The notes beneath the pieces are model-generated. The model did no database searches. It worked only from the letters and a program-made list of their open reading frames with translations, and had not been told where the DNA came from. A DNA stretch of 28,703 bases from a virus. Both the position numbers and the translations under genes were made by a program. The DNA is taken from the UHGV virus genome UHGV-0259485, one strand, 5' to 3'. How positions within the stretch are numbered: the first letter of the stretch is position 1; each line of letters starts with the position of its first letter. Of this stretch, positions 23,065-28,703 are shown one piece after another.

Positions 23065-25026
23065 TCATGCCGCGGCATCCGCGTTGTTCACTTCCACCTT
23101 CACACTGTCAATCAGCAGCGTATATGTCGCCGCCTTTGATATGGCTGGCAGTTGCAGTTTGTCCGCCGCCCCTGATGCCGGAGATTTCACCAGTGTGAAC
23201 GGCGTCCCCCGTTTCTCATCCAGTACCGGCGTCACCTGAATGCTGTTGTTTCCGGCAAACTCAAAAGCCAGTGTGTGCCATCCGTTATCAAAGACCCCGA
23301 ACGTATCCAGCTTCGCATTCGGCTTCTTGTGGTGCATCGCGTTCAGGTTCGTCGCATCCGTCTGCAGGAAGAAGGACATCAGCATGTCGTTGCCTTCCTC
23401 TGCCAGCGTCACTCCCTCCGGCAGGGACGACAACTGCCAGTAAATGCCCAGGGCAAACTGATTCGGCACCAGTGAACCCGGCAACTTAAACCGTACGCTC
23501 ACACGTCCTCCTTTCTTCAGCAACTCTGCCCCCTGCCCGGCTGCATCATGCTCCAGAAACCAGATGTGGTTTTCCGGTTTATTCAGTTGCAGGGCCTTAC
23601 CTCCCGTAGCCCCCGCATCACTGACCACCGCTTCAGCAATGTTTTTGTTAACATTGTCTCCGCTCGCCGGTTTGTGATAATAGCGCCAGCCCTGTGATGC
23701 CAGGTCTTCGCCGGACGCCAGCAGACTCATCAGGGTTCGGTTACTGACCGGACCTTCCGGCTCTCTCTCCGTACCTTCACCGGAAGGTCCGGTGGGCTTC
23801 ACCGTATCAGGCTGTTTTCCGGTAATGAATTCAGCGGTTCTCCCGGCATGCACAAGAATCGCCGTTGCCAGACGGTCGGAAATAATCCCACGACGTGCCC
23901 ATGATCCAAAATGCGTTTTACGGTCAGCCGTCGTCCAGGTTTTGGCGTCCGTTCGACCACCGGCTCCGTAATACCCAATATCCGCAACATCCGGATCTTC
24001 TGACGGCTCGTTGGTACCCACATTTCGCCCGTTTTCATCCGTCATAAACGGCACAAAGAAGATTTTTTTTGCGGATTTCGTCTTATATGCACCATACACC
24101 GCATCGTATTGCGAAGAATAAGTCTGCTTCCAGTAGTAGGTCGTGTCGCCACAAATCCAGGGAACTGATGACGGAGAGCCCCCGAGACACTGACCTCCGA
24201 ATTCCGACAGGTCAGAACGATATTTTTCCACCATGGAATCAAACAGCCCCGGCTGAGTGGCGTATGCACCCTGTTTCAAATCAAACTCGCCCTGCATCCA
24301 GACCACTGCAAGCAGAATATTTTTAGGGTTGGCCTTCAGTGCGGCCTGAGTACGGGTAAGCAGGTCCTTGTACAGTGGCTTATCTACACCCCAGCGTGCC
24401 GAGGTCTCGCTTGCGCCGGTGGATTCGCTGAAGGTACCTTCATCGCCCGCCAAAAATGCAGAACCACCACGGCAGCACGGAACCAGAAGAATACCGGCAT
24501 TCGCCGGAATAAACGGCAACAATTTCTTCGCGATATGTAATCCCTGCCCCACGCATCCATACTGAGCTGCGCTGGCTTTCGGGTGTGAAAACTTACTCAA
24601 ATCCTGAACATCATGCAGGCAGTGGTCCGCAGGAATAATGTCATTGTAGTTACAGGACGCACCACCCGGCGTGACAGTGCTGCGACGCGCCAGCTGTTTA
24701 ATACGCGGGTCCGGACGGTCATATGTCTCCGGCAGCGGAAGCCCTTCACCATACGCCATACCGTTTGACTGCCCGGCCAGGGCAACAACAAAGTAATACT
24801 CCGGGTTGCTGGTAGTGCTGATAACTGCGCCTTCTCCATCCGACGGCTTCACCACCACAGGTGTGGTGACATCACCTTCCGCCGCAATGGCCTGCATCAG
24901 GGTATAAGGCGTGATGGCCACCGGACTGCCAAATGGCTGCCACCCCTCCTTCAGTTTTTGTGTCAGTCGTTTCGCAAGGTCTGACGGCGATGCCGCCCTG
25001 ACCACGTCATAGTGTTTAAATGCCAT
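23065..25026 (-). CDS. nanS-p: Prophage sialate O-acetylesterase (NanS-p type: N-terminal DUF1737 plus SGNH/SASA esterase domain)
   Basis: 653 aa; MAFKHYDVVRAASPSDLAKRLTQKLKEGWQPFG N-terminus; GQSNG catalytic motif (YFVVALAGQSNGMAYG); located between tRNA cluster and holin as in Stx prophages. Confidence 0.8.
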   Translation of the reverse strand: MAFKHYDVVRAASPSDLAKRLTQKLKEGWQPFGSPVAITPYTLMQAIAAEGDVTTPVVVKPSDGEGAVISTTSNPEYYFVVALAGQSNGMAYGEGLPLPETYDRPDPRIKQLARRSTVTPGGASCNYNDIIPADHCLHDVQDLSKFSHPKASAAQYGCVGQGLHIAKKLLPFIPANAGILLVPCCRGGSAFLAGDEGTFSESTGASETSARWGVDKPLYKDLLTRTQAALKANPKNILLAVVWMQGEFDLKQGAYATQPGLFDSMVEKYRSDLSEFGGQCLGGSPSSVPWICGDTTYYWKQTYSSQYDAVYGAYKTKSAKKIFFVPFMTDENGRNVGTNEPSEDPDVADIGYYGAGGRTDAKTWTTADRKTHFGSWARRGIISDRLATAILVHAGRTAEFITGKQPDTVKPTGPSGEGTEREPEGPVSNRTLMSLLASGEDLASQGWRYYHKPASGDNVNKNIAEAVVSDAGATGGKALQLNKPENHIWFLEHDAAGQGAELLKKGGRVSVRFKLPGSLVPNQFALGIYWQLSSLPEGVTLAEEGNDMLMSFFLQTDATNLNAMHHKKPNAKLDTFGVFDNGWHTLAFEFAGNNSIQVTPVLDEKRGTPFTLVKSPASGAADKLQLPAISKAATYTLLIDSVKVEVNNADAAA

Positions 25027-25208
25027 GAATCCTCCCGGCCGGGATAATATTGTGAGTAAAATAAGGAGCGGGCTGAAGTCCGGAAGTTACAGGACAATGG
25101 CAGAAGAGAGACGACAGCCCGCAATTCGAAAAAGACCGCGCAGTTGCGCAGCCTTATGAATTCTGGTTAAAATCCATTCGATTATAAAAATGTATATCTC
25201 ATGCTGTT

Positions 25209-25234
25209 GCCCGAACCCACTCGGGCTTTTTTTT
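25209..25234 (+). terminator. Plus-strand terminator-like hairpin with no plus-strand gene upstream
   Basis: GCCCGA-ACCCAC-TCGGGC followed by T8; a second GC-rich hairpin (GCCCCTC-CGGA-GAGGGGC) at 25247-25264. Confidence 0.45.
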
Positions 25235-25479
25235 GCCCACAAGAAAGCCCCTCCGGAGAGGGGCTAAAGCCGCGTATCTGTATCATCATGCACATGATGC
25301 CGGGTGCCTCCCGGTGAGTTCAGTATCAGCACCTGAACCCGCACAGAAAGGATAAGGGTCGGTGACAAAACACCAGTTGCTGATTGCCCCTCCGCACAGG
25401 GGGATTCACCATGCCAGTTTCTTTTAACAAACTCCCCGCAAAACAGACAACTGTCAACCGTCTGAATTGTGAGACATTT

Positions 25480-25518: not shown

Positions 25519-25595
25519 TGGCGCGTTGTACTGGATTCGAACCAGTGACCGATTGCTTAGAAGGCAATTGCTCTGTCCGGCTGAGCTAATAACGC
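25519..25595 (-). tRNA. tRNA-Arg (anticodon UCU)
   Basis: Hand-folded cloverleaf: anticodon loop CTTCTAA, T-loop GGTTCGAATCC, encoded CCA; one A-C mismatch in acceptor stem. Third of the cluster, like argO in Stx phages. Confidence 0.75.
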
Positions 25596-25608
25596 AGGGT
25601 ACAGATAA

Positions 25609-25685
25609 TGGACCGCCATCGAGGACTCGAACCCCGCGCAACCAGCTTCGAAGGCTGGCGCTCTATCCTGATGAGCTAATGGCGG
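25609..25685 (-). tRNA. tRNA-Arg (anticodon UCG)
   Basis: Hand-folded cloverleaf: 7-bp acceptor stem, anticodon loop CTTCGAA, T-loop GGTTCGAGTCC, encoded CCA; unusual C1-G72. Middle gene, like argN. Confidence 0.7.
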
Positions 25686-25692
25686 TATGTGA

Positions 25693-25768
25693 TGGTGGCC
25701 CTTGCTGGATTTGAACCAGCGACCTGGCGATTATGAATCGCTCGCTCTCACCACTGAGCTAAAGGGCC
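25693..25768 (-). tRNA. tRNA-Ile2 (anticodon CAU, lysidine type) or tRNA-Met
   Basis: GGCCCTTTAGCTCAGTGGTGAGAGCGAGCGATTCATAATCGCC...CCA closely resembles E. coli ileX; anticodon loop TTCATAA. First of the cluster, like ileZ. Confidence 0.75.
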
Positions 25769-25796
25769 GAGCCAAAAAATAATAATCAGATGAAAA

Positions 25797-26510
25797 TCAA
25801 TAATCAAGCCCTTGCCTGGATACATATCTGTCTGGCGGGAAGCCATAATAGCGGTGAAATACAGAAATAAAGTAGGACCTGCTTGAATAACCGCATTTTT
25901 CTGCTATAGCCTGTCCATATCCATGCCGGGAACATAACATATTTACAGCAACACGCATCCGCTCTTCCAGCAACAAGCGACTGAACATGCCCCCTTCATT
26001 TTTCAGTTTTGTCTTTAACAAACTCTCACTCATATGCAACTGTAGAGCAATCGCACCAAGCGTCCAGCTTGCTGATATATCTGTCTGAATTATCGCCCTG
26101 ACTTTGGCACTTATGCTGGATAAACATCCACTTAAAAACAATGACATCCGTTCATCTGTTTCAAACAGAGACAGGCAGGCCATCATAAGAAACATATCCG
26201 TGGCCTCTCCGGAAAATCCCTGGCTGGTAATTAAAGCCGCAGCCAACGCAGGATTGTTGGGTTCCAGCAACAGGTAAAGCGGAATGTCAGTCAGACGAGT
26301 CCTCGTCAGCTTATGCTGACTTTCCAGATATTGACTTACGACGGATTCGCTTATATCGACAATTTTAACTTTGCCATAATGCATAAGGAAAAGCTCCCTG
26401 ATGCATTTGGTGGCCAGAACAACTGAGCCTGGCTTAAGTGACAACGTATCCTTTTCAAGAAAAATATTAATTGGGGAGCAAACCATGATAACTGAACAGA
26501 CAACAGCCAT
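25797..26510 (-). CDS. AraC-family transcriptional regulator (237 aa), prophage cargo
   Basis: C-terminal AraC-type double HTH (SESLLKTKLKNEGGMFSRLLLEERMRVA...GYSSRSYFISVFHRYYGFPPDRY); AT-rich gene; weak RBS. Confidence 0.75.
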   Translation of the reverse strand: MAVVCSVIMVCSPINIFLEKDTLSLKPGSVVLATKCIRELFLMHYGKVKIVDISESVVSQYLESQHKLTRTRLTDIPLYLLLEPNNPALAAALITSQGFSGEATDMFLMMACLSLFETDERMSLFLSGCLSSISAKVRAIIQTDISASWTLGAIALQLHMSESLLKTKLKNEGGMFSRLLLEERMRVAVNMLCSRHGYGQAIAEKCGYSSRSYFISVFHRYYGFPPDRYVSRQGLDY

Positions 26511-26644
26511 TATAATTTTACTTTCATTAGCAATTGGTTAGCTCAATTATAGCCCCAAAAGGTAAATTATCATCAACACATAAGCAAAGGACTGACAGGT
26601 GTCGCCCCCCCACCAGCCGCCCATTCACCACAAATAAAAAGCCT

Positions 26645-26842
26645 TCAGGACTGAAGGCGTCTGTAACAACCGCACTGATAGTCTGCCAGACCCGCCATAA
26701 CAAGCTGGGTCAGTATTAACTGGCAGCGTTCGCGTGAAAGGTAAGTATTCTGCGCAATCTCCCCGACTGTCGCCGGTTCGGTAACGCTTAATTCATCAAA
26801 CACAACTCTGGCGGTTTCTGTCATATCCTGCTGTTTCAGCAT
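26645..26842 (-). CDS. PapI/FaeA-like small winged-helix regulator (65 aa)
   Basis: ARVVFDELSVTEPATVGEIAQNTYLSRERCQLILTQLVMAGL resembles the PapI/FaeA fold pattern; upstream of the AraC gene. Confidence 0.45.
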   Translation of the reverse strand: MLKQQDMTETARVVFDELSVTEPATVGEIAQNTYLSRERCQLILTQLVMAGLADYQCGCYRRLQS

Positions 26843-26966
26843 GTCTTTTTACCCTTTCCGGTTAACGTGACATACCAATAACTCTTGTCTAAAAAGCCAG
26901 CAAGATAAAAAGCCAGTATTCACGACCACCAGCGTGTTTACTGTACTGCACCAAGTTTACAGGTAC

Positions 26967-26988
26967 AAAAAACCCGCTCAGTGGCGGG
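26967..26988 (-). terminator. Rho-independent terminator downstream of the 205-aa cargo gene (tR'-like position)
   Basis: Minus-strand RNA CCCGCC-ACUGA-GCGGG followed by U6; ~130 bp after the gene's stop. Confidence 0.6.
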
Positions 26989-27120
26989 TTTAAGTTGTGT
27001 GGCGAAGTAACCACTCTTAACACACTAATAGCATTTTTGTTATAACACAAGTAGCTCATTCAGTATTTTTAGAATCTTGACTTTCTTAAGCACGGCGAAC
27101 TCTGAATACCAAACATAAAA

Positions 27121-27738: not shown

Positions 27739-27813
27739 AATAACCTCCCAATGAACAGGTATCATCAGGAGGTTATAATAAAATATGATTATTTACTTTG
27801 ATTGAATTTATTA

Positions 27814-28185
27814 CTATATGTAACAATCAATTTCTAAAGATACCCCCAACATTGCCAGACAACCGTCAATAAACCCTTCAGCTTTCTGCAGTCTGATAAC
27901 AACCTGATTAAGTGATATCCCCAGTTTTACCCCCAACACCCGTAATGTAACCCCATACACATAATACATTTCCAGTAATTCGTATTGATACGGTTCCTTT
28001 TTCTTAAGAACTGTCATCGCAGAGCTAATGATCAGGCCATCGTCATCGCTACATTGCGGGCGGGATTTTACTTTCGAAGGAATTAATCCCTTAAAACCTG
28101 CAGCAACAGATGACCATTCCACATCCTCGTGATTATTTGCCACCCATGCCCCCCAACGTTCAAGAACCATTTGAATATCACGCAT
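27814..28185 (-). CDS. Q: Late-gene antiterminator Q (QuuD / phage 82-type)
   Basis: MRDIQMVLERWGAWVANNHEDVEWSSVAAGFKGLIPSKVKSRPQC... matches recalled E. coli QuuD-type Q; track ORF extends 5 codons further upstream. Confidence 0.8.
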   Translation of the reverse strand: MRDIQMVLERWGAWVANNHEDVEWSSVAAGFKGLIPSKVKSRPQCSDDDGLIISSAMTVLKKKEPYQYELLEMYYVYGVTLRVLGVKLGISLNQVVIRLQKAEGFIDGCLAMLGVSLEIDCYI

Positions 28186-28202
28186 CAACTTTCTCCACAA
28201 AA

Positions 28203-28703
28203 TCAGGCCAGCACGCCTATTGCCAGCGCACGATCGATAAAACGAAATATCAGCTCCAGCTGGGAGCCATACTTCTCTTCAAATGCCACGGTATCCGCAT
28301 GCAGCTCGTCGTGATGCTTTCTGCACAAAGGCAGCACGAAGAGGTCATGCGCTTTTGTACCCATTCCCCCCTGACCGTGGCCTATCAGGTGGTGGGGATC
28401 ATCAGCAGGCTTTCCACAACATGCACACGGCTGCGTCTTAACCCAGCGCGTGTACTTTTCATTAACCCAGCGGCGACGTTTGGGGCGTAACATAAAAGAC
28501 TCCGGCGACTCCGGATCCACTTTCAGCGCCAGCACCTTTTTCGCTTTATCCTGGATGATGCTGGTGGCAGGAACCGAAGGCACAAGGTCACTTTCCCGGG
28601 TGACAGACGGCACAACAGGCTTCGGTAATCTCAGTGCCTTACGGGCTGCACTTTCCGGTAAGGCATCCGCCAGATCATTACGAATCAGCCACCAGCACAG
28701 TTC
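28203..28703 (-). CDS. DUF968-like zinc-binding phage protein (5' end beyond window)
   Basis: Reading frame stays open to the window edge; C-terminal CACCGKPADDPHHLIGHGQGGMGTKAHDLFVLPLCRKHHDELH Cys/His cluster; immediately upstream of Q. Confidence 0.5.
   Translation of the reverse strand, partial: ELCWWLIRNDLADALPESAARKALRLPKPVVPSVTRESDLVPSVPATSIIQDKAKKVLALKVDPESPESFMLRPKRRRWVNEKYTRWVKTQPCACCGKPADDPHHLIGHGQGGMGTKAHDLFVLPLCRKHHDELHADTVAFEEKYGSQLELIFRFIDRALAIGVLA

Follow-up and report, generated by a model that had tools for sequence, protein, structure and literature searches.

A probable psrB ortholog carried as a moron in the late region of a mosaic lambdoid prophage, beside a separate winged-helix gene

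The viral genome UHGV-0259485 was analysed as one stretch of 28,703 nucleotides (the window), in which two adjacent open reading frames (ORFs), encoding proteins of 237 and 65 amino acids (aa), lie between the antiterminator gene Q and a tRNA cluster. In an initial annotation made from the letters of the sequence, they were described as an AraC-family regulator and a PapI/FaeA-like small regulator which are carried together as cargo and may act on chromosomal targets. Our analysis indicates that the AraC-family gene is very probably an ortholog of psrB, the gene of the "prophage-encoded secretion regulator" PsrB of Escherichia coli O157:H7, a moron acting on gadE and hdeA of the host, and that the 65-aa ORF is a separate gene. 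The proposed action on chromosomal targets of acid resistance or virulence is thus supported for the AraC-family gene by its apparent match with PsrB, but it is a rediscovery of a named regulator and little of it is new, as the action of PsrA and PsrB on the glutamate-dependent acid-resistance (GAD/AR2) regulon and on type III secretion has been described since 2011-2015. What the present analysis adds is that the genes pass without the name Psr, in records that say "helix-turn-helix domain-containing protein" or give a generic AraC-family name, so that scans will go on flagging them anew, that psr is common in complete E. coli genomes and not confined to O157, and that its 65-aa neighbour is a phage gene in its own right, very widespread and uncharacterised.

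The 237-aa protein has the hallmark of the AraC/XylS family as described in Pfam, a C-terminal DNA-binding domain of ~100 aa with two helix-turn-helix (HTH) motifs. PF00165 was found in two stretches (E=2.4e-13, 50.3 bits, cut-off 26.6) and PF12833 at residues 155-230 (E=5.8e-10, 39.8 bits, cut-off 33.6), both above the Pfam cut-offs, which confirms the family named in the initial annotation for the ORF at 25797-26510 (-). The NCBIfam model of YdeO aligns with residues 1-229 at E=4e-31, and the protein is not an equivalog of YdeO or GadX in the models NF007407 and NF007432, as its scores are 108.5 bits against a cut-off of 348 for YdeO and 87 against 500 for GadX; it is a relative and not the same protein. 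Other distant relatives are an AraC gene of a lambda-like phage (39% identity), PatE (37%), GadW (35%), YdeO (31%) and AppY (29%), while GadX (41%) and EnvY (about 40%) align with their DNA-binding halves. An N-terminal motif M-x-x-V-C-S-V-I is common to the window protein, PsrA and YdeO, with close variants in AppY (MDYVCSVV), PatE (MATTCSVI) and GadW (MTHVCSVI). Because this motif is conserved among the relatives, the ATG at 26510, which gives 237 aa, is supported as the start, and the 195-aa form annotated in strain Sakai is probably too short.

A homology search against characterised prophage AraC-like regulators, the check that had been proposed for this gene, gave close matches. By tblastn against the fetched loci, 234 of 237 residues (98.7%) are identical with ECs_2191 of the Sakai prophage Sp11, and likewise 98.7% in an O157 PT54 strain; the identity is 99.6% with the copy of an O111:H8 strain, 91.6% with that of the Stx2k-converting phage phiSTEC1575, and 90.7% over 237/237 residues with ECs_1087 of Sakai Sp4. 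The substitutions between the window protein and that of Sp11 are A103V, H196Y and I202V, and the Sp4 and Sp11 proteins share 90.7% with each other. According to the laboratory which described the Psr regulators, psrA is ecs1087 in Sp4 (PMC13502914). PsrB (z2104) is encoded on O-island (OI) 57, whose effectors are NleG2-3, NleG6-2 and NleG5-2 (PMC8565820), and its identity with PsrA has been published as 90% (PMC10877973). Sakai Sp11 carries nleG2-3, nleG6-2 and nleG5-2, exactly the three effectors of OI-57, and is its counterpart. Taken together, the near-identity with the Sp11 gene, the match of effectors between Sp11 and OI-57 and the figure of 90% to PsrA lead us to regard the window gene as the psrB ortholog. 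Searching Sakai Sp6 (the OI-50 counterpart), Sp10 and Sp14 for psr by tblastn gave none, and the Sakai copies are those in Sp11 and Sp4. In the reviews, psrA is assigned to O-island 50 as z1789 (PMC10877973, PMC8565820), yet Sp6, with espK, espN and espX7, is without psr in this search; the two locations, z1789 on OI-50 and ecs1087 in Sp4, may reflect either a strain difference or a discrepancy of locus naming in the literature.

The surroundings of the gene indicate that it is a moron, a self-contained module with a promoter-like element of its own, which occupies a slot of variable content in the late regions of lambdoid phages. In blastn comparison with two loci that lack psr (L012/L013), the homology runs over 26988..26609 (or ..26574) and resumes at 25783 with none between, and in both of these psr-less loci the gap is filled by a 349-aa DNA methyltransferase. 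Since the homology breaks at these points, the unit swapped is the 825 bp of 26608..25784, which hold 98 nt upstream with a TATAAT, the ORF and 13 nt behind it. The module recurs at 92-97% DNA identity in Sakai Sp4, Sakai Sp11, the O111:H8 strain and the Stx2k phage phiSTEC1575. Its TATAAT (26551..26546) and the surroundings are unchanged across all five aligned psr loci, and the candidate psr promoter to which it belongs lies inside the module, with the hairpin behind the 65-aa ORF upstream of it; a scan for sigma-70 promoters found 7 against 6.2 expected in shuffled sequence and so was not enriched. The slot is bordered upstream by a conserved tR'-like terminator and by the small winged-helix ORF, and downstream by ileZ-argN-argO, and it is empty in Sakai Sp5 (Stx2), Sp10 and Sp14, where Q is followed directly by the tRNAs. 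The order of Q, small ORF, psr and tRNA cluster is the same in Sp4, Sp11, the O111:H8 strain, the O157 PT54 strain and the Stx2k phage, except that Sp11 and the O157 strain have the cluster without argN (ileZ-argO) and the others have ileZ-argN-argO. In phiSTEC1575-Stx2k (L002, 5643-8324) the small ORF, psr (91.6%), three tRNAs and stx2k A/B are successive on one strand, an order from which the Psr regulator would be co-transcribed with the toxin on induction.

The position of psr allows another interpretation, namely that the AraC protein mainly controls phage functions such as the tRNA promoter, the late operon or the timing of lysis, with incidental effects on the host. The 3'-end of psr overlaps the -35 element of a candidate tRNA promoter, whose TTGATT is taken from the last psr codons and whose TATTAT -10 is conserved also in loci without psr; the gene lies within the late transcription unit, and there are prophage transcription factors whose control extends to phage operons and host operons alike (PMC11879457). 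However, late regions work without psr, being empty at this place in Sp5, Sp10 and Sp14 or holding the methyltransferase, so that phage development can do without psr; the targets published for PsrB, gadE and hdeA, lie on the chromosome (PMC10877973), and the closest chromosomal relatives, GadW, YdeO and AppY, act on the GAD regulon. We consider a chiefly phage-directed role to be highly improbable.

The AlphaFold model of the 65-aa ORF (AF2, from a 24-sequence alignment, pLDDT 89.5, pTM 0.75) consists of a three-helix bundle and a beta-hairpin wing (H4-16, H26-33, H37-49, E53-56, E59-62), from which we confidently predict a stand-alone winged helix. PapI is likewise a small winged-helix protein, of about 65-80 aa, but beyond this likeness the description of the ORF as PapI/FaeA-like found no footing. 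The Pfam family FaeA/PapI (PF04703) gave no match at E<=10, where the HMMER filters drop most matches above ~0.1; a phmmer search against all Protein Data Bank (PDB) sequences returned nothing at E<=10; and PapI is absent from the top 50 PDB matches of the model in Foldseek, which are winged HTH domains of IclR, MarR and Rrf2 regulators and of O-methyltransferases, with TM-scores up to 0.81 (IclR-type). Fimbrial operon context is missing too, the ORF being a gene of a phage late region. In Pfam, only generic winged-HTH families below threshold were found, the best being TrmB (PF01978; E=0.003, 17.8 bits, below the cut-off of 25.6), and "TrmB family" is also the PGAP name of many homologs, which are 77-98% identical and occur in Escherichia, Shigella, Salmonella, Klebsiella, Citrobacter and Buttiauxella. 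In PHROGs the ORF belongs to phrog_331 (E=6e-37, "unknown function"). The DNA differences between loci are mostly synonymous, for which reason the ORF is taken as a real coding gene.

Both genes were counted in 5426 complete E. coli genomes. There are 1324 copies of psr in 726 genomes, usually two per genome, and 4059 copies of the 65-aa ORF in 2141 genomes (~40%), i.e. ~3 times as many copies. The 65-aa ORF stands directly upstream of psr in 725 of the 726 psr genomes, so the association is one-sided: psr is always in this slot, and the 65-aa ORF needs no psr. All 726 genomes have the psr ORF at full length, with 595 records at least 99% identical to the window copy, and beyond O157 the gene was seen in O111:H8, O103:H2, the Stx2k phage and the S88 lineage. 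At the DNA level, the best matches to the region among complete E. coli genomes reach 100%, and S88 has 99.8%. The whole arrangement of Q, WYL-like gene, small ORF and psr is present in only 27 of the 5426 genomes.

These counts bear on the joint cargo of the initial annotation, in its strictest form a functional regulator pair carried as one cassette, in which a PapI/FaeA-like co-regulator modifies the DNA binding or the expression of the AraC protein. Adjacency, common orientation, the near-constant place of the small ORF upstream of psr, its winged helix and its PapI-like size all speak for such a pair. On the other side, besides the missing similarity to PapI/FaeA in sequence and in the top 50 structural matches, the small ORF far outnumbers psr and is followed by the methyltransferase in the two psr-less loci inspected; the homology break falls between the two genes, which means that only psr is swapped; and a terminator-like hairpin separates them. 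In Sakai Sp4, moreover, the homolog next to psrA, ECs_1086 (L011:3344-3583), carries a 1-nt deletion at codon 49/50 (ATGGCGGG to AT-GCGGG), and its frameshifted product of 79 aa has an unrelated C-terminus in place of the wing, yet psrA there is reported as functional (PMC10877973, PMC13502914). The absent PapI similarity, the one-sided distribution, the hairpin and the Sp4 frameshift thus argue against a PapI-like cofactor of Psr and for a separate, widespread gene of the lambdoid backbone, and we hold a functional pair to be very improbable.

For the function of the AraC-family gene we depend on what is published about its close relatives. PsrB binds the promoters of hdeA (-132 to -45) and gadE and was reported to raise the survival of EDL933 at pH 2.5-3.5 (PMC10877973). 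PsrA and PsrB raise GadE and YhiF and, indirectly through these, repress type III secretion (PMC10877973; PMC8565820), and secretion increases on deletion of psrA and not on deletion of psrB alone (PMC10877973; PMC8565820; PMC4456613). The small RNA HnrS is a repressor of Hha, the partner of H-NS; psrA and gadE both drop in a strain without HnrS and both increase when HnrS is expressed (PMC13502914), a result consistent with H-NS/Hha silencing of the AT-rich psr. A direct action on gadE has also been described for AppY, an AraC regulator that is prophage-borne as well (PMC10057817). By near identity with the characterised protein, the Psr protein of the window would be made at a low level in the lysogen from its own AT-rich promoter, would use its two C-terminal HTH motifs to bind upstream of gadE and hdeA and would in this way turn on the GAD/AR2 regulon; in hosts that carry the enterocyte effacement locus (LEE), more GadE and YhiF would in turn mean less type III secretion. 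On prophage induction, high-level read-through into psr would be expected, since the gene is downstream of Q and co-oriented with the late genes.

Several points weigh against this reading of the window gene as a psrB ortholog acting on the host. The equation of ECs_2191 with z2104 and PsrB is drawn from prophage content and the figure of 90%, not from a paper giving the ECs number, and a literature search for ECs2191/Z2104 turned up only the reviews PMC10877973 and PMC8565820; likewise, no annotation in the protein collection bears the name Psr. Three residues differ from Sakai, two of which, H196Y and I202V, are in or beside the second HTH. At position 196 the H of the window is the residue of PsrA, but at 202 PsrA has V like the Sakai PsrB, so that I202 of the window is in neither O157 protein, albeit a conservative change. 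The assignments of the psr promoter and of a late promoter (PR', see below) follow from consensus and position, the promoter calls depending on conservation, and for this allele, activity in its host is inferred from near identity with the characterised protein. Effector loci and Pch regulators have been described as companions of the psr genes within one prophage (reviews PMC10877973, PMC8565820), and the interval from the lysis genes to terminase holds pchA, pchB or a PerC-family gene in Sp4, Sp11 and the O157 PT54 prophage. The late region of the window shows neither a pch gene nor an effector locus, and inspection of the ORF list, no domain search being run, gave no pch-like ORF in this interval; the window covers part of the prophage, and effectors may lie at the far end. 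Finally, S88, an extra-intestinal strain, is among the genomes with a DNA match of 100% or 99.8%, and the type III secretion arm is therefore probably inapplicable in this host; in strains such as S88 only the acid-resistance arm would apply.

A further alternative is that psr, although intact, is in effect shut off in its host, silenced by H-NS/Hha and without a Shine-Dalgarno sequence, makes no measurable contribution and hitch-hikes as cargo. The AraC gene is the AT-rich standout of the region, with a GC content of 43.8% (GC3 45%) as compared with 50.5% in the 65-aa ORF, 48.5% in the window and ~55% in the nanS-p and tRNA part, and it has no Shine-Dalgarno sequence within 25 nt before the ATG at 26510. 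For the 65-aa ORF, a modest AAGGG stands 10-14 nt before the start; the AT-richness and weak ribosome-binding sites noted for both genes therefore hold for the AraC gene and not for its neighbour. Deletion of psrB alone in O157 barely affects secretion (PMC10877973; PMC8565820), and the expression of psrA depends on relief from Hha (PMC13502914). Against silence stand the full-length ORF in all 726 psr genomes and its near-identical copies, the invariant -10 of the promoter, and the acid survival reported for PsrB in EDL933 (PMC10877973), and we find a silent psr unlikely.

Compared in detail with PsrB (z2104 on OI-57 of EDL933; ECs_2191 in Sp11), the window gene is alike in 234 of 237 residues, in its position between the small ORF and ileZ, in its upstream region and in the TATAAT. 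It is unlike Sp11 in the type of Q, DUF1133 in Sp11 versus QuuD in the window, in the extra WYL-like gene after Q, in the three substitutions mentioned, and in showing neither pch gene nor effector locus. PsrA (ECs_1087, Sp4) lies in the same gene order, in which a Q of the QuuD type and a gene inserted behind it are followed by the small ORF, psr, ileZ-argN-argO and nanS-p, but differs by 22 substitutions, by a CAAX protease after Q instead of the WYL-like gene, and by the frameshifted small ORF. PatE (z0321/ECs_0287, Sp1/CP-933H), a published activator of gadE and hdeA (PMC10877973), is a full-length, prophage-borne homolog of the same AraC subgroup; its identity is only 37%, however, and its place is where a decayed prophage ends, beside an insertion sequence and outside the slot from Q to the tRNAs. 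GadW, YdeO and AppY (chromosomal and in DLP12) align at full length and GadX with its DNA-binding half, and all act on gadE, whereas the equivalog scores of the window protein for the YdeO and GadX models are far below the cut-offs and the genomic context is different; their input signals presumably differ as well.

The layout of the locus is given in Table 1. The setting is that of a lambdoid prophage, with Q, lysis genes, nanS-p, terminase and P22-like head genes around the AraC gene, and the plus strand of the region under study has only short ORFs of up to 61 aa. Both ORFs of the initial annotation exist, co-oriented between Q and the tRNAs, and their place inside the late operon is positionally plausible; they are not alone there, as the WYL-like gene and a terminator lie between Q and the small ORF. 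The likely start of Q is the ATG at 28185, with GGAGA upstream and in agreement with the 372-nt annotation in S88, and the protein shares 59-62% identity with the Q proteins of Sakai Sp4 and a lambda-like phage. The ileZ of the window differs from that of Sakai by 1 nt across the aligned stretch.

Table 1. Features of the region from DUF968 to nanS-p (positions in the 28,703-nt window; all genes from DUF968 through the lysis genes are on the minus strand)
Feature	Position	Strand	Remarks
DUF968 gene	28613..28203	-	upstream of Q in gene order
Antiterminator Q, QuuD type	28185/28200..27814	-	PF06530, E=1.5e-47
WYL-like gene, 205 aa	27738..27121	-	between Q and the tR'-like unit
Intergenic region, 278 nt	WYL-like gene to 65-aa ORF	-	next in gene order
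tR'-like intrinsic terminator	26991..26967	-	AAACCCGC-CACTGA-GCGGGTTT, then T-run; upstream edge of conserved block
Conserved leader	26964..26843	-	upstream of 65-aa ORF
65-aa ORF, predicted stand-alone winged helix, phrog_331	26842..26645	-	lambdoid gene, function unknown
Terminator-like hairpin	26631..26658	-	overlaps stop codon of 65-aa ORF
psr module, 825 bp	26608..25784	-	takes the place of the methyltransferase segment of homologous loci
Candidate sigma-70 promoter of psr, ATGATA-16-TATAAT	26573..26546	-	10/12 consensus match
Probable psrB ortholog, 237-aa AraC/XylS regulator of GadW/YdeO/AppY/PatE type	26510..25797	-	Pfam and identity
Candidate tRNA promoter, TTGATT-17-TATTAT	25807..25779	-	-35 within the final psr codons
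ileZ(CAT)-argN(TCG)-argO(TCT) tRNAs	25768..25519	-	ARAGORN and Rfam tRNA matches; downstream border of the slot
nanS-p-type sialate esterase gene	25026..23065	-	lysis genes come next

Upstream of the 65-aa ORF, the terminator at 26991..26967 is more stable than expected by chance (-13.8 kcal/mol, z=-4.0, none of 200 shuffles as stable). It was found at the same place in all of seven aligned loci with four antiterminator types, the sequence upstream of it varying with the type of Q, and conservation starts abruptly at this terminator and runs through the leader and the 65-aa ORF. In DLP12 and a lambda-like phage, a comparable A/T-rich stretch and terminator come directly after the QuuD-type Q, and in view of the same layout we read the terminator as tR'; the late promoter would then be just upstream of it, after the WYL-like gene. 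A PR' candidate picked by eye, TTGTGT-17-TAGTGT (~27050..27022), fails the criteria of the scan, is partly conserved with Sp4 and, as a weak inference, is not listed as a part. The leader of ~120 nt (26843..26964) is nearly invariant among the same seven loci and more conserved than expected for a simple 5'-untranslated region, and a second hairpin considered within it (26933..26912) is no more stable than shuffled sequences (z=-0.9, not significant). Behind the 65-aa ORF, the hairpin at 26631..26658 has a 7-bp stem followed by TTTTTATTT (-10.8 kcal/mol, z=-2.6), and its stem is kept in the methyltransferase-type and Stx2k loci with different loops. One might speculate that the 65-aa gene, its near-invariant leader and the terminators form a regulator heading lambdoid late operons, which controls the moron in the next slot, psr or the methyltransferase, and that PsrB in LEE-negative extra-intestinal strains couples induction, by read-through from Q, to acid resistance; we regard this as improbable.

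A few further observations concern the neighbourhood. In Rfam, the only candidate within the region of the two ORFs was STnc130, below threshold and on the opposite strand (28 vs 55 bits, E=0.23), and it was rejected as chance. Between the tRNAs and nanS-p, the interval where the stx genes sit in Stx phages, STnc100 matches at 25235-25443 (-) with 131.7 bits (gathering score 47), and the anti-sRNA (small RNA antagonist) AsxR at 25179-25231 (+) with 63 bits, exactly its gathering score, while AgvB with 43 bits is below threshold. PADLOC gave no notable match to a defence system, the small ORF reaching 14 bits with SWIM_XIII and the WYL-like protein 16 bits with WYL models.

On the larger scale, the window is a mosaic prophage. 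The morphogenesis genes in 1-20819 are P22-like, with portal, gp10, a P22-type coat and DNA transfer/ejection proteins, and in S88, where the matching segment sits in a prophage at argU, the same segment of Q, psr, tRNAs and nanS-p adjoins head and tail genes of the lambda type; a coverage of 80% of 1-25000 is reached by no complete E. coli genome in the collection. The place after Q is variable too: the WYL-like gene of the window (phrog_8498, E=2.9e-126, unknown function; Pfam WYL at 16 bits only) corresponds in position to a CAAX protease in Sakai Sp4 and to an Stk kinase with a PP2C phosphatase in strain 504211. In the sequence shortly before the WYL-like gene, an AACCTCC (27774..27768) is complementary to the Shine-Dalgarno sequence GGGAGGTT (27749..27742), and a hairpin between the two could sequester the ribosome-binding site of this gene.

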